Source: an uncultured Planctomycetia bacterium
Lineage (GTDB): Bacteria; Planctomycetota; Planctomycetia; Pirellulales; Thermoguttaceae
Reading direction: 5' to 3'
Assembly (NCBI GenBank): GCA_963804825.1
Contig: CAWDRV010000004.1
Location: forward strand, 271,278-335,277
Length of the DNA: 64,000 bases
Part shown: in pieces, positions 1-64,000 of the stretch
How positions within the stretch are numbered: the stretch's first letter is position 1
Layout: every line of letters begins with the position of its first letter
Made by a program: the position numbers and the translations under genes
Notes under the pieces: model-generated
Databases searched by the model: none
Seen by the model: the letters and a program-made list of their open reading frames with translations, nothing else
Told to the model about the DNA's origin: nothing

Positions 1-488
1 CCGAAGAGCCCGGGGACGGCCATGCCGTCGTAGTCCACCAGTTTCAACCGTCCTGCCCGCGTAACGAGGATATTGGCGTGCTGCAAGTCGCCGTGAGCCA
101 CGCGGGCGTCGGCGAGTTTGGCGACCAGCGCGCACCAGTGCCGGCTTCCCTTGACCAGGGAGTCTGTCTTGCCTTTCCGGCACTTGCAGCGGACCCATTG
201 GAAGAGGGTTTGGCCCTCGACCCACTCCATCAACAGCATCGGATACCATTTCCCGTCGCCCGCGGAACGAATGGCGTCGTCACGATACTCGAAGTCGATC
301 AACGAGCGAAGTTTGTGTGACTTCAGGTAGTTGCCCAGAAGTTGATAATGCTCTCGCCGCAGCGGCGACTCCGTGGAGAAGGTCCGAACGGCCAGGGGTT
401 TTCCCTCGGGGTCAACGGCCTTGTAGACGACGGCGAATGCCCCGGACCTGGGCGCGGCTGCCCGCGCGAGTCCGTCTCGATGCGGCAA
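1..488 (-). CDS. Protein kinase-like catalytic domain protein (partial; C-terminus beyond window start)
   Basis: Minus-strand translation gives G-loop-like PRSGAFAVVYKA, then VAHGDLQHANILV (HRDLKxxN-like) and DYDG (DFG-like). No ATG; TTG at 486-488 preceded by GCAAGG is a possible start. Runs off the window edge. Confidence 0.55.
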   Translation of the reverse strand, partial: MPHRDGLARAAAPRSGAFAVVYKAVDPEGKPLAVRTFSTESPLRREHYQLLGNYLKSHKLRSLIDFEYRDDAIRSAGDGKWYPMLLMEWVEGQTLFQWVRCKCRKGKTDSLVKGSRHWCALVAKLADARVAHGDLQHANILVTRAGRLKLVDYDGMAVPGLF

Positions 489-621
489 CCTTGCAGCCGA
501 CGGTCGCGAAACGCCGCGTGCGGCTTCTGGAGCATCGCGCTGAAATGCGAAGCTAAAGGCCAGGACATGGCTGGAGACTACCGTTCTTCCACAAGGCTAG
601 ACCGCTTGCCCATTCATGCCG

Positions 622-3416
622 TTATTCGCTGAGCAGTTCCCGTGCTTGTTTACCGTCGGGCCCATCAGGATCAAGCGCCGCTGCGCGGCGCAGTTTGTCT
701 TCGTAAACCTCCGGTCTCTGATTCTTGAACGCCACCGCGGACGCGACCAGTTTGTGGGCCCGGACGGCTCCCTGGTGGCGGGCCCGCTCCAACAGCGCGC
801 GGGCTTCCTCGTGCGCCGGGTCCATCTCCAAGATCTCCGGCAGTGCAGCCAAAAGCGCCAGAACGTCGTCCTCGGTGAACAACTTGCGGTGCTTGTCAAG
901 CAGGAGGAACCGTGATCCCGCCTCGGCCCTGGCCTCCTCGATCCGCTGCTGAAGCCCGTGCAGGGCAGCGGCCTCCGCGGCAGGCAAGGGGGCAAGGCGC
1001 AACAGGTCGATCCGCGCGGGCTTTGGCCCACTGCTGGTCGGCCAGCAGGGCCTCCGCCTCGTGCAGGGCCTGTTGGCTGCGACGTTGTATGCGCTGTTTC
1101 GTTTGGGTGAGCAGGGCATCGACCTGCCCGGCATATGCGCCCTTGGGAAAGCGACGGCGAAACTGGCCAAGCTCCTTCCAAAGCTCAAACTCCGCGTCGG
1201 CCTGGCCGCGCAAGGCCTGGATGCGGTCCCACTGTTCCTGTTCGGCCCGGCGGTCGGCGCGGAGCTTGATTTCCGCTTGCCACTGGGCAGAAAGGCTGCG
1301 GGCACGCTGCCGCGTCAACAGCGCGCCGAGCAACTCCGTCGGCGCAGCCTCGGCGACCGCTTCCGCCAGCTTGTCCTCCGCGGCCAAGGCCACCGCACGA
1401 CCCAGCACCCTTCGAGCGCGTTCGTCACCCTGCTGTCGCAGCACGGCGTCCAGCGCCTTCCAACGGCCGTCTGCCTTCCACGGGGCAAGCTGATCGAGCC
1501 AGCGCCGCACGGCGGTCAGTTGCCGGAGCGGATCGGCCGGTCTGTTCGCGAGTGCGGCGGGCTGAAACTCGTTGGCTGCGAGCATTTCCAAGAACGTCGA
1601 AGACCATTACCCCCATGCGGGTATGCATCTGCTGCGATGCCGCTTCGCCGGGCGAAAGCAGCGCTTCAACCTGCAAGCAGGCGGACACCAATTCTTGCCA
1701 CTGGCCGTCGCCGTATTGTTCCAACGCGGTCTCGTAGAATTCGCGCCGATCGATCGACTGGGCCAGTGTCGAGGTGGGCCTGCGCACGCCAGCGGCCGCG
1801 TCGTCTTTCGTCCACGGTTGGATCTGTTCCAGCAGCGGCCGGATGCGGCTTTCCGGAAGCCCGGGGAGCAGAGACGTCGCCCGCCGGGCCTCGCGGTCCC
1901 TGCCGCCGGGATCTCCGGCACGTTCGCACGCCAACGCATCATCGACCGCGCGCTTGCCCCGGGCGAAATGGACCTCGGGAGCGAGGTCCCTCAGGGTTTG
2001 TTGGAATTCATTTCTCTCGTCGGCATTCAGCGGCGTGCGCCAACCGGCGTAGAACCTGGCTCGCTGCATGAATTCCAGACCTTCGGTGACTTTCCCTGCC
2101 GCCAACTCCTCGACGGCTTTCTTGAACCACTGGCGGATTCTGTCGCACGCCGTCGCGCACGGCCCGCTGTTTGGCGAATCCGGACTTCAACGTGAGCAGC
2201 CGGCGGCCATACGGCGCCAACTCGTCCGGGTGGGCCTGGGCAAGGCGCTCGGCCTGCTTGACAAGTTGGTCGAGTTGTTGGAGGAGTTCTTCGGCCCGGT
2301 CGAGTGCCTTGCTTTCTTCCGCGGCGTTCTCTTCTTTGAGCTTATCGGCAATCTGCTGGAGCAGTTTTTGGAAGTCGGCAAGATAGGGCGGCGGCGGCTG
2401 CGGCTTCGGCGTCAGGCGTTCCGTCATCGCCTCGATCACCTTGACCAGGCGGGCCAGTCGTGGGTCGCCGGTCGCCACCTTCTGATCGCGGAGCGCCTCT
2501 TGCCACACTTGGGCCTGAACGAGGGCCCCCGCCGGGTCCTTGCTCCCTAGCAGCTTCTCGATCATCTCCAACGTGATGGGCGGAGCCAGTTGCCTTTCCA
2601 ACTTCTCGATCACCTGGGCCAACTTGACCAGTCGCGGATCGTCTTTGCTCACGCTCGAATCGCGACGAAGCCAGGCGAGCCATCGCCGGGCGCCGATCAG
2701 CGCGCTGGTCGGGTTGCGATTCTGCGACATGGCGTCGATGTCCGCCAACGTCAGGACCCACTGAGGGCGATTTGCCTTCGCCCTGGCCGCGCGCTTCGGC
2801 TTGTGGGCATCCGTCGTGGCGGCATCGGGTTCCCCGGAACGCCACATCCGATAGGCGCCGAACGCCGCCAGTGCCAACATAAGGATCGCGGCCGTTGCGC
2901 CAGACGAGAACAAACACGCCGGAACCGCGACCGGGGAGGAGAAGTCTCACGGGCGGGGGTCGGCGTCGCGCCAGCGGCTTGGGCGATGCGATACTTCTCA
3001 CGGTCGAGCGTAGGGCCGACGTGGATTTCGGTCCCGCAAGACGGGCAGTAGACACTGCTGCCGTAGTCCTCGGCGCGTACCGGGATCTGCACCCCGCACA
3101 GGCAAATCTCGTCGCCGACCACACGGGTCGCCGCCTCGACCAGGCCGCTGGCGGAGAACACCCCAGCATCGCGCGGGCTGCCGGTCTCCGACGGGGAAGG
3201 CTCGGGCGGCGGTGACGCGGCAACCGGGGCGGCCACCTCAGGCGGCGCGGCGCCTTGTTCGGCGGAGGGCGGCAGCACGGCTGCGGCGCAAGGGGCGGAA
3301 TCCGGTCCCGCAGGCACAAAGTTGGCCCGGCCGCACGAGGGACAATAAACGTCACTCCCTCGATCTTCTTCGTCGAAGGGGATAAGCGAGTCACAGTGTC
3401 GGCAAGAAATCACCAT
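622..3416 (-). CDS. Large zinc-ribbon/TM/helical-repeat protein, split into 5 frames (>=4 frameshifts)
   Basis: N-terminus has two CxxC...CPSC zinc ribbons (3416-2990). ORF 2008..2913 carries a TM helix plus DPRLxKLxxVIE helical repeats. ORFs 1425..2105, 896..1591 and 622..1305 continue protein-like sequence in shifted frames. The junction near 1010 reads ...QQWAKA | RIDLLRLA in frames one base apart. Confidence 0.5.
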
Positions 3417-3419
3417 ACG

Positions 3420-4244
3420 TCAGTTCTTTATGCCTTTCCCGTGGCCGGAACTGAGTTCCAACTTTTCCCCGGATGCCATGGGCGACCATCCTGCATCGAA
3501 GCCGCGATCCCATACGATGGAGCGGGCCTCACGAAAGGCGGCGTAGCTGTCGGGCCAGACGTCAAACTTGACGTAATAGTCAGCCGATTTTCGCCCCGCA
3601 AGTGCCTTTGCAAATCGCGACCCGGGACGCCGGATCTCTTCCAGACTCTCGCCGGGATGATTCGCCTTGCGGATGGCTGTCAGCTTCACGTCGGTGCCTT
3701 CCAGGGTGCCCTCGATGCGAAAATCCGAATCCGTCAGGTCGAAATCGACCGCCTGCCTGCCGCCTCCCCCGCGAGCGGCGAGATCGAGGACCTTCTTCAG
3801 AATCTCCTCGAAGTCGATGAAACTGATGGTCCCGTTCTCGCAGACAAAGTTGACGGATTTTTGATCCGTCAATTGTTCGTGCGGTTTGCGATATCGGACC
3901 CCCGGTGTCGGCGGCGGTGGCGGCGGATTTGACTCGTGGCCCTTCTTTTGAACCTGGACCGAGTCGGTGTCCTTCATGAGTTGGCGCAGTTCTTGATCGA
4001 CTCTCGGCAGCCGGCTGCCCAAGTCTTGCAGGCCCTGGCGACTCTGCTGGAGACTGTCGTGGATCACGCGCTGTAGGTGTTGGGTCTCGGCGTCTTCCGC
4101 GGCCGCGGGCGCCTTCGACGGGGCCCTTTCCCCCGCCGCGCCCAGACACACCGCCAGGATTGCCGCGCAGGCCAGGCCGAGGGCCATTCTGCAAGACATA
4201 AGCCGAACCGCTCTCTTGCCAGGCGCCGTGATGCTTGCCGTCAT
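3420..4244 (-). CDS. Secreted/membrane-anchored hypothetical protein (coiled-coil)
   Basis: Start ATG at 4244 with RBS GAGGAGAAAG. N-terminus MTASITAPGKRAVRLMSCRMALGLACAAILAVC is signal-peptide/TM-like. The N-terminal 176 aa of the listed ORF is low-complexity junk. Confidence 0.5.
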   Translation of the reverse strand: MTASITAPGKRAVRLMSCRMALGLACAAILAVCLGAAGERAPSKAPAAAEDAETQHLQRVIHDSLQQSRQGLQDLGSRLPRVDQELRQLMKDTDSVQVQKKGHESNPPPPPPTPGVRYRKPHEQLTDQKSVNFVCENGTISFIDFEEILKKVLDLAARGGGGRQAVDFDLTDSDFRIEGTLEGTDVKLTAIRKANHPGESLEEIRRPGSRFAKALAGRKSADYYVKFDVWPDSYAAFREARSIVWDRGFDAGWSPMASGEKLELSSGHGKGIKN

Positions 4245-4642
4245 GGTCTTTCTCCTCGATGGGTCGGCGGGGCGAGAGCGACGCGGCGGTCGCCGTCCGG
4301 GGCGGCGGCTTTGCGGCGGAAAGGCTCCGCCCCGGTCTGCGCTGCGGCGGATTTCGCCCTGGCGGCCTGGCGAAGCTTCCCCACGCGGTCGCGCAGCGCG
4401 GGGAGTTCCTTTTCCAGCGCCGCCGTCTTGTTGTCCACGTCGCGGATCGCCGCCTTCAGCAGCTCGATGTCCGCCAGCAGGGGGCGTACCGGCCGGCCGG
4501 CGTGGCCCGCCTCCGTCGGAGGCCCTGGAGGCAGGAGGATTTCCGGGGTCTTGGCGTGGGTAATCAGCAGCACGAGGATGACGAGGCGGATCATGGCCGC
4601 GGCCACATTGGTGATCGTGTCGGTCATGGGGTCGAAGTTCAT
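4241..4642 (-). CDS. Small TM coiled-coil protein
   Basis: MNFDPMTDTITNVAAAMIRLVILVLLITHAK TM helix then coiled coil. ATGA overlap with the downstream gene at 4241-4244 suggests an operon. Confidence 0.4.
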   Translation of the reverse strand: MNFDPMTDTITNVAAAMIRLVILVLLITHAKTPEILLPPGPPTEAGHAGRPVRPLLADIELLKAAIRDVDNKTAALEKELPALRDRVGKLRQAARAKSAAAQTGAEPFRRKAAAPDGDRRVALAPPTHRGERP

Positions 4643-5488: not shown

Positions 5489-7268
5489 TTAGCGATTGAA
5501 GATCCGGCGCCACAACGTTGTGCGGGCCTCGGCCGGCTCCGGCTCCGCCACCAGCGGCGCCTCGCTGAGCGGCACGGTGACCGAGGGAGCCCGCGGCATC
5601 GTCAGCGGTGGGCTCGGCGGCATCGTCAGCGGTGGACCGATCGCCGGCGCCTTGTCCTGGCCATCTCCTCGCTGCGGTTGGGCCCCATCGAGCCAATGAG
5701 TGAAGCGGCCAATTTGCGTCGCCAGCTCGGCGACGCTGTTTTGCAGTTCGGCGCTGAAGTGCTGCGGCGCGCCTTGGAGCTGTTGCTGCGACAACTCGTG
5801 GAAGAGCCTGCCGTGCTCGATCAAGGTCTGCTGCAATTGAACGACGGCCTGCTGGAAGGCCTGGGCCTCGGAGGCCATGCCTTGCTGAGAGCGGTGCCAG
5901 GTGGCGGTGGCGGCGCCGGCCTTCTCGAAGAACTCGGCCATGCTGCGGCCGATCTGGTCGAGTTTTTGGAATCGCGTGGCGTCGCCCTGGGCGATCTGCT
6001 GCTGCATGCGCGGCCGCGGCCTCGAAATCGCCGCCGATGAGCTGACCGAGCTGCCCGATCTGCGCCTGCCACTGCGCCAGCCACCGCTGGTGCTCCTGGA
6101 AGGCCGAATCGAGGGCGTCGCGCACCACCTCCGGGAGCTTCTCATGCTGGTAGCCGAGCCGCTCCTCGGCCATGCGACGCAGCAGCGACTCGTTGGAAAA
6201 TCCCTCGATGCGGTCCAGCATCCCGTACTCGGTTTTTCGCAGCCCTTCGACGGGAAAGACCATCACGATGGCCATCACCAGGGCCAGCAAGGTCGCATCG
6301 AAGGCCGTGGCCAGTCCCTTGGTGACTTCGCCCAGCCCCTTGAGCAGGTTTTCGCCCTTGGGGGCGGCGGGTGCCGGCGGGGCGCTGCGATCAGCCGGGG
6401 CGGTCGCCGCCGGCGCCGAACCGGAGTCGCCGAGGCTGGTGTGCAGGCCGGCCACGGCGGCACTGATGCCCAGCACCGTGCCGACGAAACCCAGCAGCGG
6501 GATGCTCCAGATGAACGTGCGGAGCAGGCTGTAACCGGAATCGACGCCGGAGGCGTCCAGATCGGCCTGCTTGGCCAGGTACTCCTGGACTTCGGGGACG
6601 CTGTTTCGCGATTTGAAGTGTTCCAGGGCGCCGCGGATGCGTCGGCCGAGAATGCTCTGGCGTTCGGCCGGCGGCAGCCCGTCCAGGTGCCCGAGAAACT
6701 GATCAACGTTCGTGGGAGTGATTTGCAGGCCGATGTCCAGGGGGATCAGCTTCAGTTCCAGCTCGGCGTAGCTGAGTTGCTTCTTGACCGCGATGTACTT
6801 CAGTGCCAACAACGACATTCCCCAGCAGACGACCATGGTAATGCAGATCTGCATCGGGCCACGGCGCGCGAACAGGTCGGCAATGAACCATCCCGATCCA
6901 GGTTTTTCCACCATCACGGGCCTGCCCGACTGATCGACAAGACCGTTGCCCTCCTGGTCCTTTTGCTGAACCAGTTCGCTCCGCAGCGGCATAAAGAGGC
7001 CCAGGTAGAGCACCGCGGTGAGGACCACTCCGATCGCCGCGCCCCACCAGGCGGGGACGCTCGTGGAGCTGAGGCGGGCATCGGTTTCGCGGCGGAGGCC
7101 GGCCGCCGCCGTGGGATGAAGGGTGGCAAACGACTCGTCACCTACGGGGGCCTTGATTTCCACCAGGGCTTTGCAGCCCGGGCAGCGGCCTTTGCGTCCG
7201 ATGTACTCGGAGGAGGCTCGCATCCGGTTGTTGCAGTGCGGACAGACGACGGTGATCGCGGTTGCCAT
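5489..7268 (-). CDS. MotA/TolQ/ExbB-family proton-channel protein with N-terminal zinc ribbon (frameshift near 6000)
   Basis: CPHCNNR...CPGCK zinc ribbon. TM helices ICITMVVCWGMSLLALKYI, FIWSIPLLGFVGTVLGI, LLALVMAIVMVFPVEGL are typical of MotA/ExbB. The C-terminal part continues in ORF 5489..6145 (MQQQIAQGDATRF...). RBS GGGAGAAAG sits before the ATG at 7268. Confidence 0.6.
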
Positions 7269-7372
7269 ACGTCTTTCTCCCATGGCGGCAATCGAGGATA
7301 AGATCGGTTAATTTACATACGCCTTCAAGCTCCGGGAATTACAGCCCCCTGTCGAGGTCTCTTGCCTGCCCG

Positions 7373-9330
7373 TCACGGCGGGGAGACCGGCTCCTTCTCC
7401 TCGCGGACGCAGCGGAACCCCACGCCCTTGTCCGTCACCTGTCCGCCGTAAAGGAATTGGTTGGAGCCGATGCCCCACACGTATCCCAGCGACTTGAACT
7501 CCCCCCCCTTGGCGGCGCGCCACATCTGTCCATCGACCTCGGTCCATCCGCGCAGGAACTCGCTCGCGTTGCCGACCATGTTGTACACCATGAAGGGGCT
7601 TACGTCCTTGGGCGTATCATACACGGAGGAAGTCGAGGGGAACTTGGGGTTGTCCTTAACGTTGTGCGCGCCGCATCGTATTTGTCACCCCAGGGGAACA
7701 ACCAATCGTGATCCCCGCGGTACGCCCGCATCCACTGCTCGCGGGTGGGCAGGTCCTTTCCGGCCCAGCGTGCATACGCTTCCGCGTCCTCGTAACGGAC
7801 GCCAACGACCGGGTGGTCGTCCTTGCCGGGAGGCGGGCTGCCGTCGGTCCAGTCGGCCGGCGCGGCCCGGCCGGTCTCCCGGATGAACTTGGCGTACTGG
7901 GCATTGGTGACTTCATACTGATCGATCCAGAACGCCGGCACGTGGACGCGCCGTTGCGGCTCCTGGCGGAAGAACTTCAAAAAGGCCTCCACCGACTGGT
8001 CGTTCATGTAGTCGGAAAGGCAGTTCCGCACCTTGAGTTCGCTGTTTCCTAGACGGGCGAAGCCGACCTCGACGAAGACCATCCCAGCAGGGGCCTCACG
8101 AACGCGAACGTCCGGGGGAGGCGGGGGCGGAAACGCCTTCTGCCCCATCGTGAAGTTCAAGACCAATCCCACGATGAGGAAGGCGGCCAGGATGGCCCCG
8201 CCGGCGTACAGCCACGGCAGTTTCTCCCGCAACCATTCCTTGCGCGTCTCGAGGGGGAGCAGCTCGATGACGGGAAGTTGCCCTTCCCGATGCGTCTCCA
8301 CCGAGGCGGCCGACAACTCGTCGGTTCTCCAGATCGAGTCGCTCCGAGCCGGGGCGGCGCGGATCAAGTCTCGCAGCTCGTTGGCCATGGCCAAGGCGGT
8401 GGGAAAGCGGGATTCGGCTCGCCGCGCCATCGCCCGGGCAAGAAACTCCTGGACCTTGTGGGGCACCTCGATATTGATCCGGTCCACGGGGGCCGGCGGG
8501 ATGCCGCTGGAAATCGCTCCCACGACTTCCCCGACGGTCCCCTCGAACGGCGGCTTTGCCGTGAGGAGACAGTACATCGTGCCGCCGAGCGAAAAAATAT
8601 CGCTCCGCCGGTCCAAGGGCTTGCCCTGGCATTGTTCCGGTGACATGAAAGCAGGGGTACCCACGACCTGTCCCGTGCGCGTCAAGCTCGAGTCGCTCTC
8701 CTCGCGCACCAGGCCGAAATCCATCAGCAGGACGCGGAGGTCCGAGGAGAGCATAATGTTGGTCGGCTTGACATCGCGATGGACCAGCCCCTGATTATGG
8801 ACTGCATGAAGCCCCCGGGCCACCAACTGGATGATGCGGGCGGCGGAGCGCCAGGGGAGGGGACCACCTTGGTCCTGGACAACCTGAAGGAGGTTTCTGC
8901 CCTGGATGTACTGCATAATGATGAAGTACAAGCCGCCTTCTTCCCCCACGTCGTGGATAACCACCACGTTGGGGTGTTCGATTCGCGAACAGACGCGTGC
9001 CTCCTTGAGAAACCGCTCGATATGTTCGCGTGCGCCGAGGTTGGGGGGGAGGATTCTCAGCGCCACCGGTTTTTCCAGCGCGAGGTGCTGGGCCAGATAG
9101 ACCTCACCCATCCCGCCCCGCCCGAGCAACCGGACGATTCGGCAGCCTCGAATGACCTGCCCGCTGGCCAGAGTCTGTGTTCGTTGACGGACTTCCACGT
9201 TCTTCGCCCGCACGAGATCGCGTCGGCAGATCGTCACCGTGGGAAGCGGCGGCGCTGGGCGACCGATCCGACAAAAGGGGTCCCTCGTTTGCAGGAAGGC
9301 CAGCTTACCATGGGAGCAAATTTCTTGCAA
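7373..9330 (-). CDS. Ser/Thr protein kinase fused to FGE-sulfatase (formylglycine-generating enzyme-like) domain; frameshift near 7630
   Basis: Kinase motifs GRGGMGEVYLA, HRDVKPTNIML, DFG, SPE. The C-terminal FGE domain (PAFWIDQYEVTNAQY...) continues in ORF 7373..7624 (GNASEFL...GFRCV). The listed start at 9330 is TTG; the true start is probably a few codons downstream. Confidence 0.8.
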
Positions 9331-9414
9331 CGGGCCTGATGCCCCTAAGTGGTGGGATGGAAGAAATCGGCCCCCCCGGAAATCGGCCCGTCCTGAGTGA
9401 ATTTGTTTTGGTAA

Positions 9415-9930
9415 TTACGCGTTCCTTCGATGCGGCTCGACGTGGCTTGAGAGGTCCAGAACCGCCCTCAAGTGTGCCTTGGCCCGGCACGTCGCCACGG
9501 CCAGTGCGCCGGGAGTGAGCCGTAACTCCCGGCAGATTGCCTCCCGATTCTTGCCCGCCATGTATGCCAGGCAGATCGCCAGTTGTCTCCCTCGGAGGGT
9601 CGCCAGGGCTTCCCGGACCACCAAGTGGCGCAGTAGAATGCCGGGTGGGTCCGGCTGCCTGCCAGCGGGGGCGGACTGCCGGGTGCGTCGCCGGTGCTGC
9701 CTTCTCGCCGAGTCGGCCATTTCCCAGCGCAGCGCGCGATAGAAATAGGTCGCGGCGTGAGCGGCAGAGCAGCGATCCGCGGACCAATGGCGGCGGCAGC
9801 GGAGATAGGCCGAATGCACCACGTCCTCGGCGTCTTCCAACGTGCCTCGCAGGTGCTTTCGGCAGCAACGGATGAGGGCCGGGTAGTAACGACAAAACAA
9901 GTCGTTGAGAGATGCGAGAGACGGTGACAT
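9415..9930 (-). CDS. ECF-type RNA polymerase sigma factor
   Basis: C-terminal 171 aa of ORF 9415..10770 has sigma region 2 (HSAYLRCRRHW) and a region-4 HTH (LAICLAYMAGKNREAICRELRLTPGALAVATCRAKAHLR). ATG at 9930. The upstream part of the ORF is antisense junk. Confidence 0.7.
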   Translation of the reverse strand: MSPSLASLNDLFCRYYPALIRCCRKHLRGTLEDAEDVVHSAYLRCRRHWSADRCSAAHAATYFYRALRWEMADSARRQHRRRTRQSAPAGRQPDPPGILLRHLVVREALATLRGRQLAICLAYMAGKNREAICRELRLTPGALAVATCRAKAHLRAVLDLSSHVEPHRRNA

Positions 9931-10020
9931 AAGGGTATTCTTTTTTGGGGATAATCGTGGAGTTTTGCGCGTGCCTGGCGTAGGACACCCGCATCCACAG
10001 TCCTTAATGGCTGTCGAACG

Positions 10021-19416: not shown

Positions 19417-20023
19417 ATCGCGTCTCCTCCAGTGCGTAAGTACATTGTTTTCAATGGTTTAGAAAAGTCGGACAAGCAAAAGAAAGTCTGTCTATCCGGG
19501 GGCCTGTTCCCGCGGGCCAATCGGCGACGCAAGTTCCTGGGAGGACCCAAGGCCGGGGGGCCCAAAGCGGATACGCTACGTTGGGCCGTGTTGGGCCGCG
19601 CGCAACGTTGGGGGAAGGGCAAACGGCGCGACACCGGGCCAACGTGCGCAAACGTGGGGCAACAAGGGGCATTGCCTGCGGAGCGGCCGGCCTCCGTCTT
19701 GCCGGCGCCGAGGTGTGCGCCTCTGCGGTTGAATTGTCAGAATATCCAGAGCGCTTTTCGGCAAGGTCGTGCGCGATGGCCAGGGTTGATTGGCGCAGCG
19801 CGGAATGGAGAGCGCGGGAAGCACTACGCATGGCGTCCTCCCGTTGCCTGGATGATAGCGGCGATAGTATCGCGGATCGCAGAGGGAAGAGTGGGCCACG
19901 CGTCGATTACGCTGGCCAGTTGCGGGTCGGCAGGAGGGGTTTCTGGCGAGAGTGCTGCGCCTGTGCTGCGCTTGTTGGAGAAATGCCAGATTTCTCGGGG
20001 TTCTTGGGGTCTTCGTCTAGACT

Positions 20024-20068
20024 CGAAATCAGGTGCCGGGCAACCGGTTGAGGGTTCGAATCCCTTGC
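20024..20068 (+). tRNA. Partial tRNA (3' half of a class-II Ser/Leu-like tRNA): probable att-site remnant
   Basis: GGTGCCGGGCAACCGGTTGAGGGTTCGAATCCCTTGCCCTCCGC is a variable-arm, T-arm and 3' acceptor segment. No matching 5' half upstream. Similar to the 3' ends of array tRNAs at 26218 and 27879. Confidence 0.4.
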
Positions 20069-20319
20069 CCTCCGCTTCGCACTGTCTCGCACTGACTCGC
20101 ACAAGCCCGCAACTCGTAAAGAGTTGGGGCTTGTGCCATTTCTTGGGGGCGGCCTTTCTTCGTCGCACCCCGTCGCATCGTCCAGCACCAAATCGCGCCC
20201 TGAGTGCTGCGCATGCGCTGCGCTTTTTTGGGCCGACCCTGGATCGAAGCCCCCGGTCTTCATGGGCAACCGGAGTACCGGTGCCTCGTCGGTCCCTGTC
20301 GCCCGGAGGGCCATGGGCT

Positions 20320-20839
20320 CGCTGGCCATCATATTCGGCAGCCGGGCGACCGTGGCGGCGTCCTGGCCCGGGAAGAGGTGCCCGTAGGTATCCATCGTCA
20401 GCACGATCGTCGAGTGCCGCATCACCGATTGCACCGCCTTGGGGTGGGCACCGGCCATCGCCAGCCAGGCCCCGCAGGTGTGTCGGAGACTGTGGAAGTC
20501 GAGGAACTCCCCCTCGTGGTTCTTCTCTCCCAGGAAATCGCTCTCTCCCCGCCGCATAGATTCCTTGGCGTCCCGCTTGGCGGCCTTCAGCCAGGCCTGC
20601 CGGGCGTCGGCCACGTCCGCCCGGAACATCGCGGCGACGTCGGGCCGCGGCTTCATGGCCTCGGTACGAAACGGCGAAACTTCCTTCGTCTCTCCTGTCT
20701 TCCACGTTCGCCACGCTTCCTTCCACGTTTCGTATTCGGCGGCCACTGCCTGTTCCATCGCGCTGGCAAAGCCGCCCTCCCGGTAGTGGCCTAATTTGGC
20801 CGGATTCGCCCTAAAAATGGGTGTGACTTTGAAAGCCAA
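20320..20839 (-). pseudogene. Tyrosine recombinase/integrase C-terminal catalytic fragment (N-terminally truncated, stop lost)
   Basis: FHSLRHTCGAWLAMAGAHPKAVQSVMRHSTIVLTMDTYGHLF is the box II H-x-x-R...Y region. About 155 aa of catalytic domain with no N-terminal domain. The ORF then runs about 160 aa beyond the catalytic Tyr as low-quality sequence. Confidence 0.6.
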
Positions 20840-22267: not shown

Positions 22268-22299
22268 CAATAAAAACGCCCGGAGCGGTGGCAACCGTT

Positions 22300-24832: not shown

Positions 24833-24985
24833 TTGGGTCGGTAGCTGAGATGCGGGCACCGACCGAAGGTTGGTCGGCGGCGGCCTGAAAAGCCGCAGAC
24901 GCGGATTCGAGCACCGCCCGACCCACTGCGTGAAACGTGCGCGCGAACCCCTTGCTTCAACTGCGTGGAAGGTGCGCGCTGAGAT

Positions 24986-25059: not shown

Positions 25060-25066
25060 CTGTGGG

Positions 25067-25160: not shown

Positions 25161-25168
25161 CTGGATGA

Positions 25169-25241: not shown

Positions 25242-25267
25242 CCTGACGGACAACGACGTTGGCACAT

Positions 25268-25339: not shown

Positions 25340-25405
25340 CTGGAAAGTGAGGAGCATGACCATGAAGCAAACCCGATGGAAACGCATACGCCCGGCCTGC
25401 ATTTC

Positions 25406-25917: not shown

Positions 25918-25925
25918 TTTCAGCG

Positions 25926-41370: not shown

Positions 41371-41394
41371 TCGCTGTTCGTTTTCGAGACCACT

Positions 41395-42816: not shown

Positions 42817-44723
42817 ATGCGGAAGGCAACAAAGCTACTCGCAGCGGCCGTGATCGCGGGCGGAGTCGTCATGGGACTGCTCGGATCACGCCTGCCGTGG
42901 CACGTAGGGCCGGGCTTGGCGCTCGGCGCCGACATCGTGAGCACCATGCCGCCGGAGGCGGTCGGGTTCAACGGCACGCTGTCCGGCCAGGTCGCGAAAC
43001 CCGGCGGCCAGGGATGGTTTGTGATCAAGGTGGTCAAAGTGATCGGATTGGCTCCGAACAACCGGACCAGGCTCAATGCCAAGGCCCTGACCGCCGCGTG
43101 GAAGGACAAGTACGTGACCATCGTGGGCAAGAACCTGCCGCCGGTCGCCGTGGGCGACATGGTGACCGTGGTGGGCACGCAGTTCGAAATGCACATCCGC
43201 TCGTCGAAGGTGACGAAGCAGGACGGGGGCCGACCGGGCGGACATGCGCAAGCCCGTCGCGGGAGGCCGGAACTACGACCTCGTATTTTCCACGTATTTC
43301 GGCCAGAAGATGGACTGCCGCGGGATGACCGTCGACGCCCAGGGCAACGTCTATCTCGCCGGGTCCACGTGGGACGCGGAGTGTCCGACCACCAAGGGCG
43401 CCTATGACCGGATATTCCACGGCGAGGCCGACATGGCCATTTCCAAGTGGTCGCCTGAGGGAAAACTTCTCTGGTCCACGCTGGTGGGGAGCCCGGGGCA
43501 CGACCGCCCCTATTCGGTCAAGGTGGACAGTCATGGCTGTGTCTACGCGGCGGGGATCGGCGGCGTGGGAATGCCCGTCTCGCCGGACGCCTTCCAGCCC
43601 AAACCGCTGGCCCGCACGAAGAACGTGAAGATCCCCGGCGAGGAGTACGTGGGGGCCAACGGCTACATCGTCAAGCTCAGCGCCGACGGCTCGAAGGTCC
43701 TATGGGGCAGTTACGTCGGCAGCAACATCGAGTGCCGCGACCTGGCGATCGACGACGAGGACAACTTGTACCTGACGTTCGGCTGGAGGAAGGATTCAGC
43801 CGGGGAATTGCCCGCGCAGTTGGTTCGCCAACGCCTACCGCAAGCGGCCCCATGCAGGCCGCACGCCGCCTGGTCGCATCGAGGATCTTGGCGTGATGAA
43901 GGTTTCCAGCGACGGGAAGAGGGTCTTCTGGGCGACCTACATCGGCGGCACCGGCGGGAACGCCCTTGAGGCGAGCCTCTGCGTCGGCCCCGACCATTGC
44001 CCGGTCGTCTTCACCGGCACCTCGTCCCGCGACATGCCGACGACTCCCGGCGTTTTCAGCAACAAGCCCAACTCCTCCTGGTTGGGCAAGTTCTCCGCCG
44101 ATGGATCGAAACTGATCTTCGGCACTTACCTGGGCGCGGGAAAGGTGTCGGTCCCGAGAACGCACGACGTCGCCATGGATTCCAGGGGCCACATCTTTGC
44201 GACCTTCAGCGTTGACGGCACGTGGCCCACGACCCCCGGCGCCTTCCAGCGGAAATACGGCGGCGGCAAGACGGATTTCGGCATCGTCAAGCTCTCTCCG
44301 ACAGGGAAGCTGCTGGCATGCACCTACCTCGGCGGGAGCGGGGACGAAATCAACGGCCCGGATACCCTATCGGTGGGCAAGGACGGCAGCGTCCTGATCA
44401 CCAGCGGATGGGGGACCACGTCGCCCGATTACCCCGTCACCGCGGGGTGTTTTCAGCCGAACCTCCGGGGAAAGAACAATGCGTTCTTCTCGCTGCTTTC
44501 CAACGACCTGGGCACGCTTCTCTATTCGACCTACATGGGAGGCAATGGGGCCAATCTTCGCGCCAACGCCTTTGCCCCGGACGGGTCGATCTGGGTAGCC
44601 GGACACTCGCCGGGGCCGGACTGGCCGCTGAAGAACGCCTACCCGAACGTCCGCAAGGCCGGCCTCGTGCTGGCCAAGTTTTCGCCCCGTTCCTCGGCCT
44701 CCGGGGGATTGCCGTCACGGTGA
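42817..44723 (+). CDS. Secreted SBBP beta-propeller repeat protein (2 frameshifts, near 43240 and 43890)
   Basis: Signal peptide MRKATKLLAAAVIAGGVVMGLLG. Repeats of the type YSTYMGGNG...D.SGNVY..G in ORFs 43244..43969 and 43893..44723. Confidence 0.6.
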
Positions 44724-47692: not shown

Positions 47693-48942
47693 ATGAATTG
47701 GGCGGTTTATCTTGAACTCAGCGGGGTGTTTCTGCTGGAATTTGCCGTCTGGGGCGCGTGGATGCCGGTGTTGGCCGCCCGATTGCTGGGGCCGTTGAAG
47801 CTGAGCGGGAAGCAGACCGGGTGGATATATGCCACTCTGCCGCTGGCCAGCCTGATCGCCTTTCCTTTGGCCGGCCACTTGGCCGACGGATACGTGGACC
47901 TCCGCACAATCTTGATCGTCTCGCACGCGGCGGGGGTGGCGCTGCTCTATCTGGCCTCGCGGATGGAAAAATTCGGCGGGCTGTTCGTGACCATGTTTCT
48001 TTACTCGCTGTTTTATGGGGCCACGCTGCCGCTGGTCAACGGCTTGGTCTTTCGTCATGTCGCCGAGACCGGCGTTGCAGAGGCAACCATCATCCCGTGG
48101 ATTTTCGTTTGGGGGCCCATCGGCTGGTCGCTGACGGGATACGTGCTGGCCGGCCTGCGGCAATGGGGGATCACGAAGGCCGACGGCAGCGACGCCCTGA
48201 AACTGGCGGCCGTCCTGTCGCTGGTCATGGTTCTGATTTGCGTGGCGGCGCCACTGTCGCCTCCGGGAAACAAGGGCACGCCGATTCTCCAGGCATCTCC
48301 CTGTTCCGCGAACCCAATTTCGCGATCTTTATGGTCGTTTCCTTGGTCTTGGCCGCCACGACCTCGTTCTACTTCCAGGGGACGGCCCAGTTCCTCCAGG
48401 ACATCGGCGTCTCCGGCAAGAACGTCTCGGCGGCCATGAGCATCGCTCAAGCCGTCCAGGCGGTGGCGACCATGACGATCCTCGGTCTCCTTTATTACCA
48501 CGGGCCAAAGTGGACGGTCGCGCTGGGCGCCGGCTGCTGGGTACTGATGTACGCGATCTACGTCGGCAGCCGGCAACGATGGCTCATCGTCCCGGCGCAA
48601 GCGCTGCACGGGGTGGCCTACCTGTTGGCGTTCAACGCCGGCTGGCTGTTCGTCAAGGACATTGCCCCGGAGGAAATCCAGAATTCCGTCCAGTCGCTTT
48701 TCAACCTGGCGATCGTGGGCGTCGGGCCGTTCCTCGGCACGCAACTGGCGGGTGTGGTCATGGACCGGTTCGCCGTGGAGGGCAAGTTCCAGTGGCGGAA
48801 AATATTCTTGGTGCCGCTGCTTTGCACGCTCCTGGGAACGATCGTTTTCGCCGCGGCGCTGCACGATCCGCAGAAGATGTCGGGTGAAAAGGCCCCCGCC
48901 GGCAAGACCGCCCAGCCCGCGACGGCGACCGACAAGCCGTAA
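47693..48942 (+). CDS. MFS transporter (nucleoside:H+ symporter-like), frameshift near 48290
   Basis: 12-TM pattern split across ORFs 47693..48439 and 47758..48942. Confidence 0.65.
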
Positions 48943-49002: not shown

Positions 49003-50126
<1,124 letters not shown>

Positions 50127-50477: not shown

Positions 50478-51903
50478 ATGTCCACCACCCTGAACAGGAC
50501 GAGACTGAGCGACAGCGGATACGACTTCATCGACGAGCCGTATCTCTTGGGGCTGTTGAAGCGGCCGTCGTCGCCGGGCCGCCTGCGCGACGTGATCGCC
50601 AAGAGCATGGCCAAGGAATCGCTCGACGTCGAGGAGACCGCCGTGCTGTTGGCCGCCGCCGACGCCGAGAGCGTCCAGCGGATTTTCGACGCGGCCCGGC
50701 AGCTCAAACGCAACGTCTACGGCAATCGCATCGTGTTGTTTGCGCCGCTGTACGTCGGCAACGAATGCACCAACGATTGCCAATACTGCGGCTTCCGCCG
50801 GTCCAACCGCGAGGCGGTCCGCCGGACGCTTTCGCCGGCCGACCTTCGCGCCCAGGTCGAGGCCCTGGAAAGCCGCGGCCACAAGCGGATCATCCTCGTC
50901 TTCGGCGAGCACCCGTCGTATACGCGCCCCGTACATGGCCGATTGCATCCGGCAGGTCTATGCGGTCAAGGTCGGCCGCGGCGAGATTCGCCGGGTGAAT
51001 CTCAATGCCGCCCCGCTGGACCACGCCGGCTACGAGATCATCCAGGCAGCCGGCATCGGCGCCTATCAAATCTTCCAGGAAACCTATCACCACGAAACCT
51101 ATGGCCGCGTGCACCCCCGCGCGACGGCCAAGGCCGACTATCTCTGGCGGTTGGACGGCGTCGCCCGGGCCATGGAATCGCAGTGCGGCGACGTGGGCAT
51201 CGGCGCCCTGTTCGGACTGTACGACTGGCGTTTCGAGGTGCTTGCCCTGGTGGCGCATGCCAGGCACTTGCAAAAGCATTACCAGGTCGGGCCGCACACG
51301 ATCAGCTTCCCGCGGCTGCGGCCGGCCAGCGGCGTGCGGTTGGACGACACCTGCCTGGTCGGCGATGAGGCGTTCAAGCGGCTGGTGGCCGTGCTGCGGC
51401 TGGCGGTGCCCTACACGGGCTTGATCTGCACCGCGCGCGAGCCCCCCAGCTCCGGCGCGAGGTCCTGGCCCTGGGCGTCTCGCAAATCGACGCCGGCAGC
51501 CGCGTCGAATTGGGCGGTTATACCGAGGTCGGCGACGCCCAGGTCATGGAACGCGGCAATTCGAGCTCGGCGACATCCGCAGCCTCGACGCCGTGTTGGG
51601 CCAACTGGTGACCGACGGCTACATCCCCAGCTTTTGCACCGCCTGCTATCGGCTCGGCCGCACCGGCGAGCACTTCATGGAGTTTGCCATCCCCGGCTTC
51701 ATCCAGAACTTTTGCACCCCCAACGCCCTGAGCACGTTGATGGAATACTTGCAGGACTACGCCTCGTCGGAGACCTATGCGGCCGGCCATCGGCTGATCG
51801 AGCAAGAGCTGGCGAAGATGCCCGAGGGAAAACGCAAGACGGAACTGATCGACCGGCTCCGCCGCATCCGCGAGACCGAGCAGCGGGATTTGTATTTTTG
51901 AAA
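50478..51903 (+). CDS. ThiH/HydG-family radical SAM enzyme (2-iminoacetate synthase-like), >=3 frameshifts
   Basis: CTNDCQYCGF radical-SAM cluster motif. QETYHHETYGRVHP. The C-terminal GYIPSFCTACYRLGRTGEHFMEFA is typical of ThiH. Pieces lie in ORFs 50451..51368, 50740..51924 and 51593..51901. Confidence 0.7.
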
Positions 51904-52573: not shown

Positions 52574-53685
52574 TCATCGCAGCGTCGGGCCGTCGATCAC
52601 GTCGATGTGCTGGGCCATGAGGTGGCTGGCCTGCTGCTCGGGCACGTAGCCGCGGGTGCCGTTGATGCCCACTTGCCGGCCGAGATAATAGCGCAGGTTC
52701 ATGCCGGGCTCGGGCGTCACGTAGCAACGCACGCGGCCGTAATCGTCCAACAGGGCGTATTGCGGCGCCCCGATCCGCGACGGACTCACCCGCGCCAGCT
52801 TGCCCACCCCGTCGTACCGCCCGTCGGTGTCGAATTGCGGCGCGACGCCGCGTAGCCGCGGGCCGACGCGGGCCGATTGGCGGTCCATGCGGTCGATCTC
52901 GTCGTGCATCGCGTTGATGTGGTCGTAACGTTGTTTCATGTCCTCGAAGCGGGCGATCTTGCCCAACAGCAGCCGGGCCCGGCCGCGATCGACCGCGGTC
53001 TCGGCCTGGTCCAACAACGCCTCGCTCCGCGTGCGCAACTCGCCGAACTGCCAAACGGTCGGCTCCTCGACCACGACGCTCGAAAGATCGAGTTCGATCC
53101 GGTTGACCGCGGTCTCAAAGGGCGCGGCCGAGGCGGCCCGACCGTCGCCACGGGTCTTCCGCAGACCGTTGTAGGGGAAGTCGGCGTCGACGAACCGGCC
53201 CGAAATCCAGCGGAACTCGCCCGCCGGCGGGGCAATCTTGACCCAGGCGCCGGCGGCCGTGCCGGCGTCCGGACCCTCTCGCTTGGCCTCCAAGACTTCG
53301 ACCAACTCGCCGCGGTGCAGGCGGACCTGGATCACGTCGCGGATGTCGCTGAAGCGGCTGCCCACGCGGGCGGCCACGTGCTCTTCGCTCACGGTGGCGA
53401 GGTTCTTGTGGCCCAGTTCCAGGTACCGCCCGGAAACCCAGGAAAAACTGCCCCGGCCGGCCGAATGGCCAGCCAACCGCCGGGATCCTGGCGATAGACC
53501 TCGACCGGATCGCCCGTCTTGAGCTTGTCGGTGGGGTAGTAGTTGTCGCCCGGACCGCTGCGGACGTAGACATCGTTGGCGATGACGTAAGCCTTGTAGG
53601 GGAAGGTCTGGCCCGGGGCGGCCCGCGCCGTGGCAACCCAACAGCCAAGAAAACAGCACGAAATCGCGGCAAGGGACAATCGCAT
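52574..53685 (-). CDS. Secreted SH3b-domain protein (frameshift near 53440)
   Basis: Signal peptide plus SH3b YVIANDVYVRSGPGDNYYPTDKLKTGDPVEVYRQDPGGWLAI in ORF 53389..53685. The rest is in ORF 52574..53887. Confidence 0.5.
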
Positions 53686-53764
53686 GGTTCCATACCTCCC
53701 AGGACAGTGGGAAGAGATCGGGTTGATTTCGAGTTAGGCGGTTTCTTCGTTCGGGCGAAGCAGT

Positions 53765-53915
53765 AGTGCCACGGGCATCTTGCCCGTGCCCTCGTGCGGG
53801 GTGCCACGGGCATCTTGCCCGTGCTGCAATCGGCATTGGCACACGCACCAGTGTTGGCTTCGGGCACTGGCAAGATGCCAGTGGCACCCGTGCCAGATGC
53901 CAGTGGCACCCGTAT
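53765..53915. promoter_or_regulatory. Cluster of short palindromes/direct repeats in divergent intergenic region (2x CACGGGCATCTTGCCCGTG, CACTGGCAAGATGCCAGTG, 2x ATGCCAGTGGCACCCGT)
   Basis: 7-3-7 inverted repeats ACGGGCA-tct-TGCCCGT at 53770-53788 and 53805-53823. ACTGGCA-aga-TGCCAGT at 53866-53884. They lie between the SH3b gene start and leuS. Confidence 0.4.
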
Positions 53916-54132
53916 CCGTGCTACCCAACGCTATGTGAAAAGTGGCTGGAAAAGTAGACCGAGAAAAGTAGACCGCGGACTTGTAGCGAAAATGGGCCGC
54001 CGATTCAAGGGCAATTGTGGTTTGCCGCGGAGGGCCGGTTCTCGATAAAATCATGGTTTCGTCTTCCGCTCCCTCTTCCTCCGGGAGGGGGGGAGACCGT
54101 TTTCACGCCCTTTCCCTGAAGCAGGCTGTGCC

Positions 54133-56803
<2,671 letters not shown>

Positions 56804-58169: not shown

Positions 58170-58687
58170 TCAATCGTTCATGTCCAAGAACACCTCGTCC
58201 GAGAGGCCGCGCTCCGCCGCCATCCCCAGCTCATCCAAGCGGCGGCGCTTGCCCACGGCGTGCCAAGGACTGACGCCCCGCAGTTCGGGCATCATCTCGG
58301 TCAACTGGTCGATCAGCGTCTGGGCCATCAGGTGGACGGGCTCTTGCTCGGCCTGTTCCAAGATGGCCAGCGCCGTTTTCATCAGGCGGACCAATTGCGC
58401 CCGCTTCATCAGCGGCTCCGAAAGCGAATCGTCCGACTCGACCAGCAATTCGCCCACGGGCACTTCCAGCGCTTTTTGCCACTGGTAAAGTTTGCTGAGC
58501 GGCAGATCGGAAAACTGGTTCTCCTGCGCCTGATCTCGGCGATATCGACGTTCAATCGCCGCGCGACCGCCCGGCGCGAGATGCCTTGCAACTGGCGGAC
58601 GGCTGCCAGCCGGTGCAACGGCTGCTTGACGGGAAGGTTCAACCCCTGGGAACCCTCGGCCCCACACGCGCAATCCACGATGCTCAT
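58170..58687 (-). CDS. XRE-family HTH regulator (frameshift near 58530)
   Basis: HTH ISRRAVARRLNVDIAEI in ORF 58409..58687. The C-terminal domain is in ORF 58170..58709. Confidence 0.45.
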
Positions 58688-59040
58688 GGCACGTTCCTTC
58701 CGTGATCACGGCTGGTCGTTTGCCTTACGGAATCTCCGGGATAAACGTGAACGAAGCGACAAAGACATTCCGTTTCCCGCGACCAGACATGATCCAGCGT
58801 TCCCCATTGGGCAGCGACGGTCTAGCGACAAACCCACACTGCCACGTAATCCAACTCACTGGCGGATGGCTCACTGGAAGACCGGCGAAGAAAAGAGCCC
58901 GACTCGAAAGCACGGCCTTCGTGGTCTATCCTAACCTAGCCGCAAGCGATCCGCAAGCAAGTTCCGCACAATCGGCAAAAGAATTGCCGGCGGCATAACC
59001 GTAACAGGGGGTGCCATCGCCCGGAATGACCGCTCCCGGT

Positions 59041-59607: not shown

Positions 59608-60405
59608 AACCGGGACAGGTCCGGTATTGACAAGATAGGTAAGATTCTCTTATCCTCTACGCCATGCCGCGTGCTGCCAGAGTCGCCCCCGGTGGAATGG
59701 TCTTCCATGTCCTCAACCGAGCCATTGCGCGGGTTCGGATATTCGAGAATAATGGGGATTATGCCGCGTTCGAGCAGACCTTGGCGGAGACGTTGCGACA
59801 ACGGCCCATGCGGGTATGCAGCTATTGTCTGATGCCGAACCACTGGCACTTTCTCCTTTGGCCGGAACGCGACGGCGAATTGGCGGCATTCCTGCAGCGA
59901 CTCACCATTGCTCACGTTCGGAAGTGGCAAGAATATCGGGGCGTCACTGGCACGGGGCATTTGTACCAGGCGCGTTACAAATCGTTTCCCGTGGAGGATG
60001 ACGAGCATTTCCTGGCGGTGGCCCGGTACGTGGAACGCAACCCGCAACGTGCTGGGTTGGTGTCGCGCGCGGAAGACTGGCAGTGGGGTAGCCTGTGGCG
60101 GCGATGCCGAAACGCCATCGCGCCGAGTATTCCGCTGTCGGCGTGGCCGATGCCGATACCCGCCTCTTGGTTGGATTGGGTGAACGCCGCGGAGGACGAG
60201 GACCAGTTGAAGCAATTGCGGACGAGTATTGGACGAGGCCGGCCGTTTGGTCGCGTGGAGTGGCAGCACCGCGTGGCCAAGCAGCTTCGCTTGGAGTCGT
60301 CGTTTCGGGAACCGGGCAGGCCCAAGGGATTCAAACGTTCGTGATCAACAAACCATCAAGACGTTAAATTACCCATTTTCACAATACCGGACCTGTCCCG
60401 GTTTC
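59608..60405 (+). mobile_element. REP-associated tyrosine transposase unit (RAYT gene flanked by inverted REP copies)
   Basis: REP AACCGGGACAGGTCCGGTATTG at 59608-59629 and its reverse complement CAATACCGGACCTGTCCCGGTTT at 60383-60405 bracket the RAYT CDS. Confidence 0.7.
59664..60344 (+). CDS. REP-associated tyrosine transposase (RAYT, IS200/IS605 TnpA-like HuH Y1)
   Basis: HuH motif CLMPNHWHFLLW and catalytic Tyr region GHLYQARYKSFPV. 226 aa. Confidence 0.8.
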   Translation: MPRAARVAPGGMVFHVLNRAIARVRIFENNGDYAAFEQTLAETLRQRPMRVCSYCLMPNHWHFLLWPERDGELAAFLQRLTIAHVRKWQEYRGVTGTGHLYQARYKSFPVEDDEHFLAVARYVERNPQRAGLVSRAEDWQWGSLWRRCRNAIAPSIPLSAWPMPIPASWLDWVNAAEDEDQLKQLRTSIGRGRPFGRVEWQHRVAKQLRLESSFREPGRPKGFKRS

Positions 60406-62926: not shown

Positions 62927-62935
62927 GGACCCCGA

Positions 62936-63408
62936 TGAGCGCGGAAGCCCGGCTTGCGGAAAAACTGAAGGAATTGGGCATCGCCATGCCACCGGCGCCG
63001 GAACCCAAGGGCGTGTACCGCCCGCTGGTCACCCGGGGCGACCTGGTCTATACGTCCGGCCACCTGCCGGTGCAACCGTCCGGCGAGTTGGTTGTCGGGC
63101 GGCTGGGCGCCGAATTGGACGTGCCGGCGGGCTACGCGGCCGCGCGGCTGGCGGGCCTGGCCATCCTCGCCTCGCTCCGCAAGGAGTTGGGCACGCTGGA
63201 CCACGTCCGCCGCGTGCTCAAGGTGTTGGGCGTGGTCAACGGCACGGCCGAATTCACCCAGCAGCCCGCCGTGCTCAACGGATGCAGCGAATTGTTCGCC
63301 GAGGTCTTCGGTCCGGAGGCCGGCGTCGGGGCCCGCAGCGCGATCGGCGTCGCTTCGTTGCCGTTGGGCGTGCCGGTCGAAATCGAAGCGATCTTCGAAA
63401 TCGCGTAA
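62936..63408 (+). CDS. ridA: RidA/YjgF-family reactive-intermediate deaminase
   Basis: Chorismate-mutase-like family pattern. 157 aa. Confidence 0.8.
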
Positions 63409-63493
63409 CGCGAAGTTTTTTGCCGGTCCACGTCGCCTGCAAAACGGCAAGCGAAGGACGGGGATTTTGCGGCAGCAACCCGAGGAACACACC

Positions 63494-64000
63494 ATGTGGA
63501 AGAACGTTGGTTGGGGCATTTTTCTCCTGGCATGTTGGACGGCCGTGTTGGCCGCGGCCGCGGCCGACCAACGGATCGAATATCCCCGCACCCGCCGCGT
63601 CGAGCAGGTGGACGATTATTTCGGCGTCAAGGTGCCCGACCCGTATCGGTGGCTGGAGGACGACGTTCGCAAGTCCCGCGAGGTGGCCGACTGGGTGGCC
63701 GCGGAAAACAAGGTCACGCGGCGCTGGCTGGATTCGATCCCGCAGCGGGAGAAGATCGGCCGTCGGCTGACGGAGCTGTGGAATTTCGCCAAGTACGACG
63801 CGCCTCGAAAGGCCGGCGGACGTTACTATTATCTGAAGAACGACGGGCTTCAGAACCAGCCGGTCCTCTATGTGATGAATTCGCTGGAGGGCCGGCCCCG
63901 GGTCCTCCTCGATCCCAACACGTGGACGAAGGACGGCACGATCGCGCTGGCCGGGCTGGCCGCCAGCGACGACGGCCGGTACCTGGCCTACGCCCGGGCC
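63494..64000 (+). CDS. Prolyl oligopeptidase (S9A) N-terminal region, partial at window end
   Basis: Signal peptide, YPRTRRVEQVDDYFGVKVPDPYRWLEDD...AENKVTRRWLDSIP...YYYLKNDGLQNQPVLYV matches the prolyl endopeptidase N-terminal propeller lead-in. Confidence 0.8.
   Translation, partial: MWKNVGWGIFLLACWTAVLAAAAADQRIEYPRTRRVEQVDDYFGVKVPDPYRWLEDDVRKSREVADWVAAENKVTRRWLDSIPQREKIGRRLTELWNFAKYDAPRKAGGRYYYLKNDGLQNQPVLYVMNSLEGRPRVLLDPNTWTKDGTIALAGLAASDDGRYLAYARA

Follow-up and report, generated by a model that had tools for sequence, protein, structure and literature searches.

The 64-kb window analysed here (64,000 nt of contig CAWDRV010000004.1) comes from a soil planctomycete whose best relatives are Pirellulales/Thermoguttaceae planctomycete metagenome-assembled genomes (MAGs), has a G+C content of 63%, and contains 12 genes that are each cut into two to five reading frames by indels of 1-2 bases. 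These breaks are very probably not biology but indel errors left in the assembly or consensus of a metagenome contig built from long, Nanopore-type reads. An earlier note on this DNA, made from its letters alone, had read the frameshifts as indel-type errors rather than pseudogenisation, and that view is upheld by intact JGI orthologs, by purifying selection in the gene fragments and by the lack of nonsense codons. It is upheld as well by a fused gene whose breakage in relatives tracks a Nanopore-only sequencing project, and in which a 2-nt contraction is shared by Nanopore MAGs but not by a JGI contig that belongs to their clade.

The breaks were located with a six-frame codon-usage model, trained on eight open reading frame (ORF) segments of the window and decoded as a Viterbi path without homology; this path was used instead of a GC3 frame plot, which alone discriminates poorly at 63% G+C. 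A frame switch was counted where it fell on the same strand with no stop-start boundary between the two open frames, and the switches at 4186-4260, 9909-10000, 13152, 16347, 18594, 34134, 60294-60348, 62046, 62922 and 63405 were left uncounted as gene boundaries or noise. This procedure revealed 20 same-strand frame switches in 12 genes (Table 1), which make up about a quarter of the window genes and are mostly long ones. The open frames overlap at all 20 junctions, and one small indel suffices to join each pair. No in-frame stop was found in any fragment of the split genes, giving 20 frameshifts and no nonsense codon, and relative to orthologs the disruptions are net indels of 1-2 bases only, with no larger deletions. 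Ten junctions are net -1 and ten are net +1/-2, so the net direction is balanced, and 11 of the indels were resolved to the base.

Homology, in the form of hidden Markov model (HMM) coordinates or intact orthologs, backs 17 of the 20 junctions; the other three (MotA-like at ~6010, SBBP at ~43228 and ~43822) are placed by codon usage and open-frame overlap only. Across the breaks, successive frames cover profile positions 1-~283, 284-360 and 367-843 of LeuRS (TIGR00396), 1-123 and 126-330 of GAPDH (TIGR01534), 35-145, 151-320, 324-352 and 358-469 of HydG (TIGR03955), and 10-189 and 202-397 of PF03825 (MFS). In the three NCBIfam cases (LeuRS, GAPDH and HydG) the summed scores exceed the family cut-off, whereas the single fragments all fall below it. 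Junctions were found at or near all 16 coordinates that the earlier note had listed; for 14 of them the offset from a final junction is ~15 nt at most, and those given as 51480, 7630 and 43890 were off by 32, 42 and 68 nt, respectively. The statement that the protein continues without loss in a neighbouring frame likewise holds, given the overlapping open frames, the lack of stops, the abutting HMM coordinates and the collinear orthologs, and the Hsp70-like, HK, beta-helix and hisG genes are intact, as had been said.

The truncated kinase-FGE product in the NCBI/ENA record (P0121, 503 aa) is exactly window 9111-7603, including its out-of-frame tail, which places the breaks in the deposited assembly. 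The record holds one contig of 767,200 nt, a length (0.77 Mb) that in such an organism points to long reads. We infer that the window itself comes from a Nanopore-type assembly.

Two contigs of one JGI metagenome, L135 and L136, represent a close relative of the window organism, at ~85-90% nucleotide identity. L135 (54.8 kb) was found via P0001, an intact LeuRS of 890 aa that was retrieved with the corrected window LeuRS and is 88% identical to it. This contig is collinear with window 49-64 kb, at a nucleotide identity of 84-90% in the split genes and 78-92% across all aligned blocks, and it carries intact gap (339 aa), HydG-like (474 aa), SH3 (372 aa), leuS (890 aa) and XRE-like (172 aa) genes. 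Each of these intact orthologs maps to two to four window frames, with single -1 or +1 indels exactly at the junctions, and the unbroken genes of the window occupy one frame only when mapped from L135. The malectin gene is intact in L136. Comparison with orthologs, which had been proposed earlier as a check, thus gave one answer in L135, L136 and a further JGI contig described below (L058): the genes of close relatives are whole, and the window differs from them by indels of 1-2 bases at the junctions. The ratio of nonsynonymous to synonymous substitution rates (dN/dS) against L135 ranges over 0.07-0.34 for the 13 fragments, whether before or after a break, compared with 0.12-0.53 in intact neighbours and about 1 or more in wrong frames. 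A pseudogene would be recognised by a dN/dS approaching 1 downstream of the break; the fragments compared show no such relaxed selection, and the protein sequence across the breaks continues under purifying selection.

The genes listed earlier as a broken cysK and a broken cysS are one gene, a CysK-CysRS-like fusion that relatives encode as a single protein of 770-800 aa, so the list of split genes stands with a count of 12 instead of 13. Two edits, a GC inserted at 41240 and a C deleted at 41655, yield one ORF of 767 aa, with a full CysK/M domain and a CysRS-like domain scoring just under the cysS equivalog cut-off, in which the HIGH and KMSKS motifs read, by eye, 'PPDLGL' and 'KKVSR', respectively. 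The claim that an essential CysRS is broken therefore falls, the sequence being the C-terminal domain of a fusion paralog below the cysS cut-off and with degenerate motifs. LeuRS and GAPDH still carry the essentiality argument without it. Among loci L004-L050, dozens from Pirellulales and Desulfobacterota retain the fusion whole and conserved, with ~49% identity between the phyla.

One intact fusion protein was mapped onto 54 GTDB loci, 14 from the Microflora Danica (MFD) project and 40 from elsewhere. These GTDB relatives were recovered via the CysRS-like domain, show no synteny beyond the fusion gene, and are usable for that gene and, by chance, for HydG. The MFD MAGs were built from Nanopore reads alone, with Flye as the assembler and a single round of Medaka polishing (PMC12313526). 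Of the 14 MFD loci, 10 have the gene broken into two to eight pieces, and of the 40 non-MFD loci 39 carry it in one frame, the exception being L002 with a deletion of 556 bp; breakage in 10/14 versus 1/40 loci gives a Fisher P of 4e-7. Breakage of the fusion gene follows the sequencing project and not phylogeny. The same kind of breakage as in the window, including one identical 2-nt contraction, is characteristic of the related Nanopore-only MAGs and absent elsewhere.

That contraction, the -2 at 41240 (GCGCGCG to GCGCG), is common to the window and to two MFD Nanopore MAGs, L001 and L003, and is followed by AGGAGG, a Shine-Dalgarno (SD)-like sequence (GGC^GCGAGGAGG). Its sharing by three lineages points at first sight to a real inherited mutation. 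Downstream of it dN/dS is 0.07 against L001 and L003, versus above 1 in wrong frames, indicating that the segment has been translated in the frame of the protein since the lineages split. The JGI contig L058 is nested in this clade, in which L003 is the outgroup, and at 92-94% identity it is just as near to the window as L001 is; its sequence at the site is CTCGCGCGCGAGGAG, which keeps the frame, and the extra C at 41655 is missing from it too. Another MFD MAG, L022, shows this contraction elsewhere in the fusion gene, at a different 'LAREE' site. Over all loci there are four copies of the contracted CTGGCGCGARGA, each at a frameshift and none outside the window and the MFD loci, and three copies of the full CTGGCGCGCGARGA, all of them in non-MFD loci. 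A motif-specific technical error would explain all of these observations, whereas inheritance would need an exact reversion. That the contraction is real DNA, read through by conserved +1/-2 recoding in the fusion gene of this Thermoguttaceae clade, so that at least this break would be biology, we consider very improbable; in a milder version, the GCGC-linked indels would report an unmodelled DNA modification at GCGC-type sites of the clade. A global depletion of (CG)3 and longer strings in Nanopore assemblies was not supported, the count in the window being equal to that in short-read loci.

Real pseudogenisation, that is, a decaying genome whose genes were truly inactivated by frameshift mutations, would account for many frameshifted genes, as in the pseudogene-rich decaying genome of Mycobacterium leprae; such mutations favour short repeats and runs, and the fusion gene is truly disrupted in one relative, by an IS30-like insertion in L003, and carries the 556-bp deletion in L002. 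We nevertheless regard it as having very little chance of being correct, because dN/dS downstream of the breaks equals that upstream and that of intact genes in the fragments tested, and because essential single-copy functions (leuS and gap) are among the broken genes while the orthologs of close relatives are intact. Moreover, real disruptions should include several nonsense codons, as expected from general mutation spectra, and none accompanies the 20 frameshifts; breakage correlates with the sequencing project and not with phylogeny, and an inherited -2 at 41240 would have had to revert exactly in L058. Recoding, in which the cell itself would join the frames through programmed ribosomal frameshifting or slippage during transcription, has its best candidate in the -2 site with AGGAGG. 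Two overlapping frames would encode one protein, as in the programmed frameshifts of prfB (+1), dnaX (-1) and the IS3/IS1 transposases, and it could call on the occurrence of the site in three lineages, on the purifying selection in the frame after it and on the SD-like sequence behind it. Against this, no slippery motif is common to the 20 sites, and +1, -1 and -2 shifts would all be needed; relatives are in frame at all tested sites, so the shift site is not conserved; and to our knowledge none of the split genes belongs to a recoded family such as prfB, dnaX or the insertion sequence (IS) transposases. At the candidate itself, a slip near AGGAGG turns the conserved CysK 'REEGIF' into 'RGGDL', whereas adding GC restores the conserved peptide, and the same contraction stands at a different 'LAREE' codon string in L022. 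Recoding is thus the least credible of these explanations.

A mixed case, in which most breaks are consensus errors and a few are real variants (frameshifted SBBP, zinc-ribbon or MotA-like alleles) or the consensus is a strain mosaic, has a small probability. The breaks fall into three blocks, six in 0-8 kb, five in 36-44 kb and nine in 48-59 kb, a pattern that differing strains or dips in coverage would produce; three junctions are without homolog support, and the fusion gene has real disruptions in relatives; but no single break stands out in type, context or conservation, and the homologs of the accessory genes are collinear across the breaks. This clustering is also one of several points that weigh against consensus error: the ~18 kb of coding sequence in 8-36 kb contain no break, where ~7 are expected (P ~ 0.001), and the densities of GCGC, CGCG and homopolymers there are similar to those in the rest and do not account for the missing breaks. 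Local coverage or strain heterogeneity would explain it. Further, the sequencing technology of the window is deduced; the JGI comparison contigs are intact and may be short-read assemblies; and the comparison contigs belong to other species (78-94% identity) and are no proof of the true bases here. The indels themselves depart from the textbook Nanopore signature, with only 4 of the 11 resolved to the base at homopolymers of at least 4. Published modification-mediated Nanopore errors are mainly mismatches and not indels (Modpolish study, PMC10687267).

The sequence context of the indels supports part of the cause that had been proposed in the earlier note, namely long-read homopolymer indels. 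Homopolymer runs of at least 4 bases account for the 4/11 just mentioned, compared with a background of 12% (P = 0.035), and do not account for the rest; GCGC lies within 8 nt of 7/11, compared with a background of 8.7% (P ~ 1e-5). Among the 11 are three extra C residues directly before GCGC or GCC and one GC contraction. In the mechanism we propose, the consensus would retain ~20 uncorrected 1-2-base indels in ~52 kb of coding sequence, each shifting an otherwise healthy gene to another frame, so that gene callers would return truncated or split products. The indels would originate in the basecalling or polishing step, where the sequence is rich in GCGC/CGCG or has short G/C runs, and might be worsened by low coverage, strain mixtures or DNA modification; methylation as the cause of the GCGC-linked indels is conceivable and a conjecture.

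Such a consensus resembles known Nanopore-only (Flye + Medaka) output, in which isolated 1-2-base indels split conserved genes, as seen in the IDEEL test (PMC9262707, PMC12313526), and in which frameshifted gene calls arise especially in bins below ~40x coverage (PMC9262707). The lack of stops and the preference for long genes are shared features, and the related long-read MAG loci (MFD-LR) look the same. It differs from typical Nanopore-only errors in that only about one-third of the resolved indels lie at homopolymers of at least 4 and most stand beside GCGC/CGCG, in the recurrent dinucleotide contraction, and in the balance of +1 and -1 changes (10:10) without deletion bias. Recurrence at one short motif in independent related assemblies, surviving polishing, is reminiscent of modification-mediated Nanopore errors (PMC10687267), although those published are mostly mismatches and the window has indels. 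The window is unlike pseudogene-rich genomes in showing no relaxed selection, and unlike programmed frameshifts in that its sites are not conserved in orthologs and its genes are not known as recoded.

The breaks are almost certainly a sequencing and assembly artefact to be corrected and not biology. Until the contig is polished, its gene calls and protein lengths cannot be relied on, nor can the 'pseudogene' flags and completeness estimates drawn from it. Where a gene in it looks truncated, fused or split, or an RNA loop has an odd length, relatives should be consulted before any interpretation. The residual errors of this high-GC lineage lie mostly beside GCGC/CGCG strings. Because one contraction recurs across independent Nanopore MAGs, a frameshift shared between assemblies is no proof of its reality.

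Table 1. Frame breaks in the 12 split genes of the window (extra or missing bases in parentheses; a hyphen within a motif marks a missing base)
Gene (extent)	Break	Strand	Change	Viterbi switch	Evidence at the junction
Zinc-ribbon (622-3416), break 4	954-1013	-	net +1/-2	1011	P0363, P0365, P0366, P0369, P0371: 1531-1013, then 954-625 in other frame
Zinc-ribbon, break 3	1531-1594	-	net +1/-2	1594	same five homologs: 2144-1581, then 1531-1013
Zinc-ribbon, break 2	2138-2146	-	net +1/-2	2137	P0363 residues 126-337 = 2832-2143, 341-526 = 2144-1581
Zinc-ribbon, break 1	2862-2946	-	net -1	~2920	N-termini of P0362, P0363 at 3167-2901, then 2862/2832 in other frame
MotA/ExbB-like (5525-7283)	6000-6020	-	net +1/-2	6010	Viterbi and overlapping open frames only
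Ser/Thr kinase-FGE (7385-9330)	7672-7702	-	net -1	7672	606-616-aa homologs (P0122-P0127) in two frames
Malectin-domain, 'glycosidase-like' (37527-40130)	38085-38089	+	+1 insertion, extra C, TGC(C)GCGC	38083
CysK-CysRS-like fusion (40482-42787), CysK domain	41238-41245	+	-2 deletion, GGC(GC)GCGAGG	41239	in-frame relatives all 2 bases longer
CysK-CysRS-like fusion	41653-41657	+	+1 insertion, TTT(C)GCGCG	41655	extra C vs L001, L003-L006, L055-L058
SBBP-repeat (42817-44723), probable break 1	43214-43244	+		43228	G5 run; overlapping open frames
SBBP-repeat, break 2	43800-43830	+	net +1/-2	43822	SBBP-like sequence continues in next frame (by eye)
MFS (Nuc_H_symport-like) transporter (47693-48942)	48285-48300	+	net -1	48292	PF03825 in two frames
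gap (49105-50126)	49487-49492	+	-1 deletion, C4 to C3	49489
HydG-like radical SAM (50478-51901)	50922-50929	+	+1 insertion, ACG(C)GCC	50923	at 50925 vs L135
HydG-like	51440-51449	+	-1 deletion at C6 run	51444	51448 vs L135; frames 1 then 3
HydG-like	51553-51558	+	-1 deletion, CGCG-GC	51555	51556 vs L135; frames 3 then 2
SH3b-domain (52580-53685)	53450-53460	-	-1 deletion	53428	53456 vs L135; 372-aa L135 ortholog in two frames
leuS (54133-56803)	55177-55183	+	-1 deletion, CAG-GGGCGG	55180	at 55180 vs L135
leuS	55427-55432	+	-1 deletion, CCG(G)ATGCG	55435	at 55430 vs L135
XRE-like regulator (58173-58699)	58524-58530	-	-1 deletion	58531	58527 vs L135; 172-aa L135 ortholog in two frames

Several junctions were characterised beyond the entries of Table 1. 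The homologs of the 2.8-kb zinc-ribbon gene (P0363-P0371) lie in five frame pieces, which correspond to four breaks. A further homolog, P0362 (518 aa, 63% identity to the window 2137-2901 fragment), shows an extra frame change near 1800; it is shorter than the members of the family (780-1007 aa) and may itself stem from a frameshifted assembly. In the MotA/ExbB-like gene the MotA_ExbB Pfam match lies upstream of the ~6010 break, and a tRNA-Leu(gag) called by ARAGORN at 5854-5926 on the plus strand, inside this minus-strand coding region, is probably a false positive. Full-length homologs show that the two frames of the kinase-FGE gene join at 'WGDKYDA | GAHNVKDN'. Residues 1-192 of the malectin-gene homologs P0241-P0245 fall in frame 3 and residues from 194 onward in frame 1, and nucleotide alignment with L136 places the +1 of the window at 38087. 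The SBBP junction at 43228 could be a gene boundary, with an ATG at 43244 in the downstream frame. Pfam gave no gain in continuity for the MotA-like and SBBP junctions, SBBP matching the middle fragment only.

At the gap junction (49490) L135 reads GCGCCCCGGCC and the window GCGCCC-GGCC. The gene directly downstream of gap, in the window and in L135 alike, had been labelled 'thiH-like' and should be called HydG-like instead: it matches the HydG ([FeFe]-hydrogenase maturase) equivalog TIGR03955 over positions 35-469 of 470, with a summed score of 423 bits against a cut-off of 312. At its first break the orthologs in L018 and L135 fall in frames 3 then 1. The break in the SH3b gene cuts the SH3_3 domain at profile position 40/54. 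An 8-nt tandem duplication (GATGCGCC x2) was considered for the leuS break at 55435 and ruled out, the ortholog having GDAPGAPRED and the alignment giving a 1-nt deletion. Between its SH3 gene and leuS, L135 carries an N6_N4 DNA methyltransferase gene (8670-9608); the equivalent slot of the window (53700-54130) is only ~0.4 kb long and looks non-coding.

The insertion that splits the fusion gene of L003 is an IS30-like element of 1092 bp (8288-9379), bounded by terminal inverted repeats. The deletion in L002, a SPRUCE MAG contig, lies at ~2187, removes the equivalent of window 41138-41693 and starts at the very base of the L003 insertion (window-equivalent 41137/41138). This coincidence may mark a hot spot for IS insertion next to which a deletion arose, or a misassembly.

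Within the break-free part of the window lies a tRNA array (24835-30816) of ~36 genes by ARAGORN, only 24 of which reach the Rfam tRNA gathering score. The tRNA at 25067-25161 has a 6-nt anticodon loop ('cc'), and the Pro-like tRNA at 25926-26001 has an 8-nt loop ('cggg'). Since no coding frame was found to be broken in 8-36 kb, these odd loops need not be indel errors. Next to the array, in a stretch of lower GC, stand genes for an integrase (19907-20839) and for a transposase (22288-23304), which suggests a mobile element.

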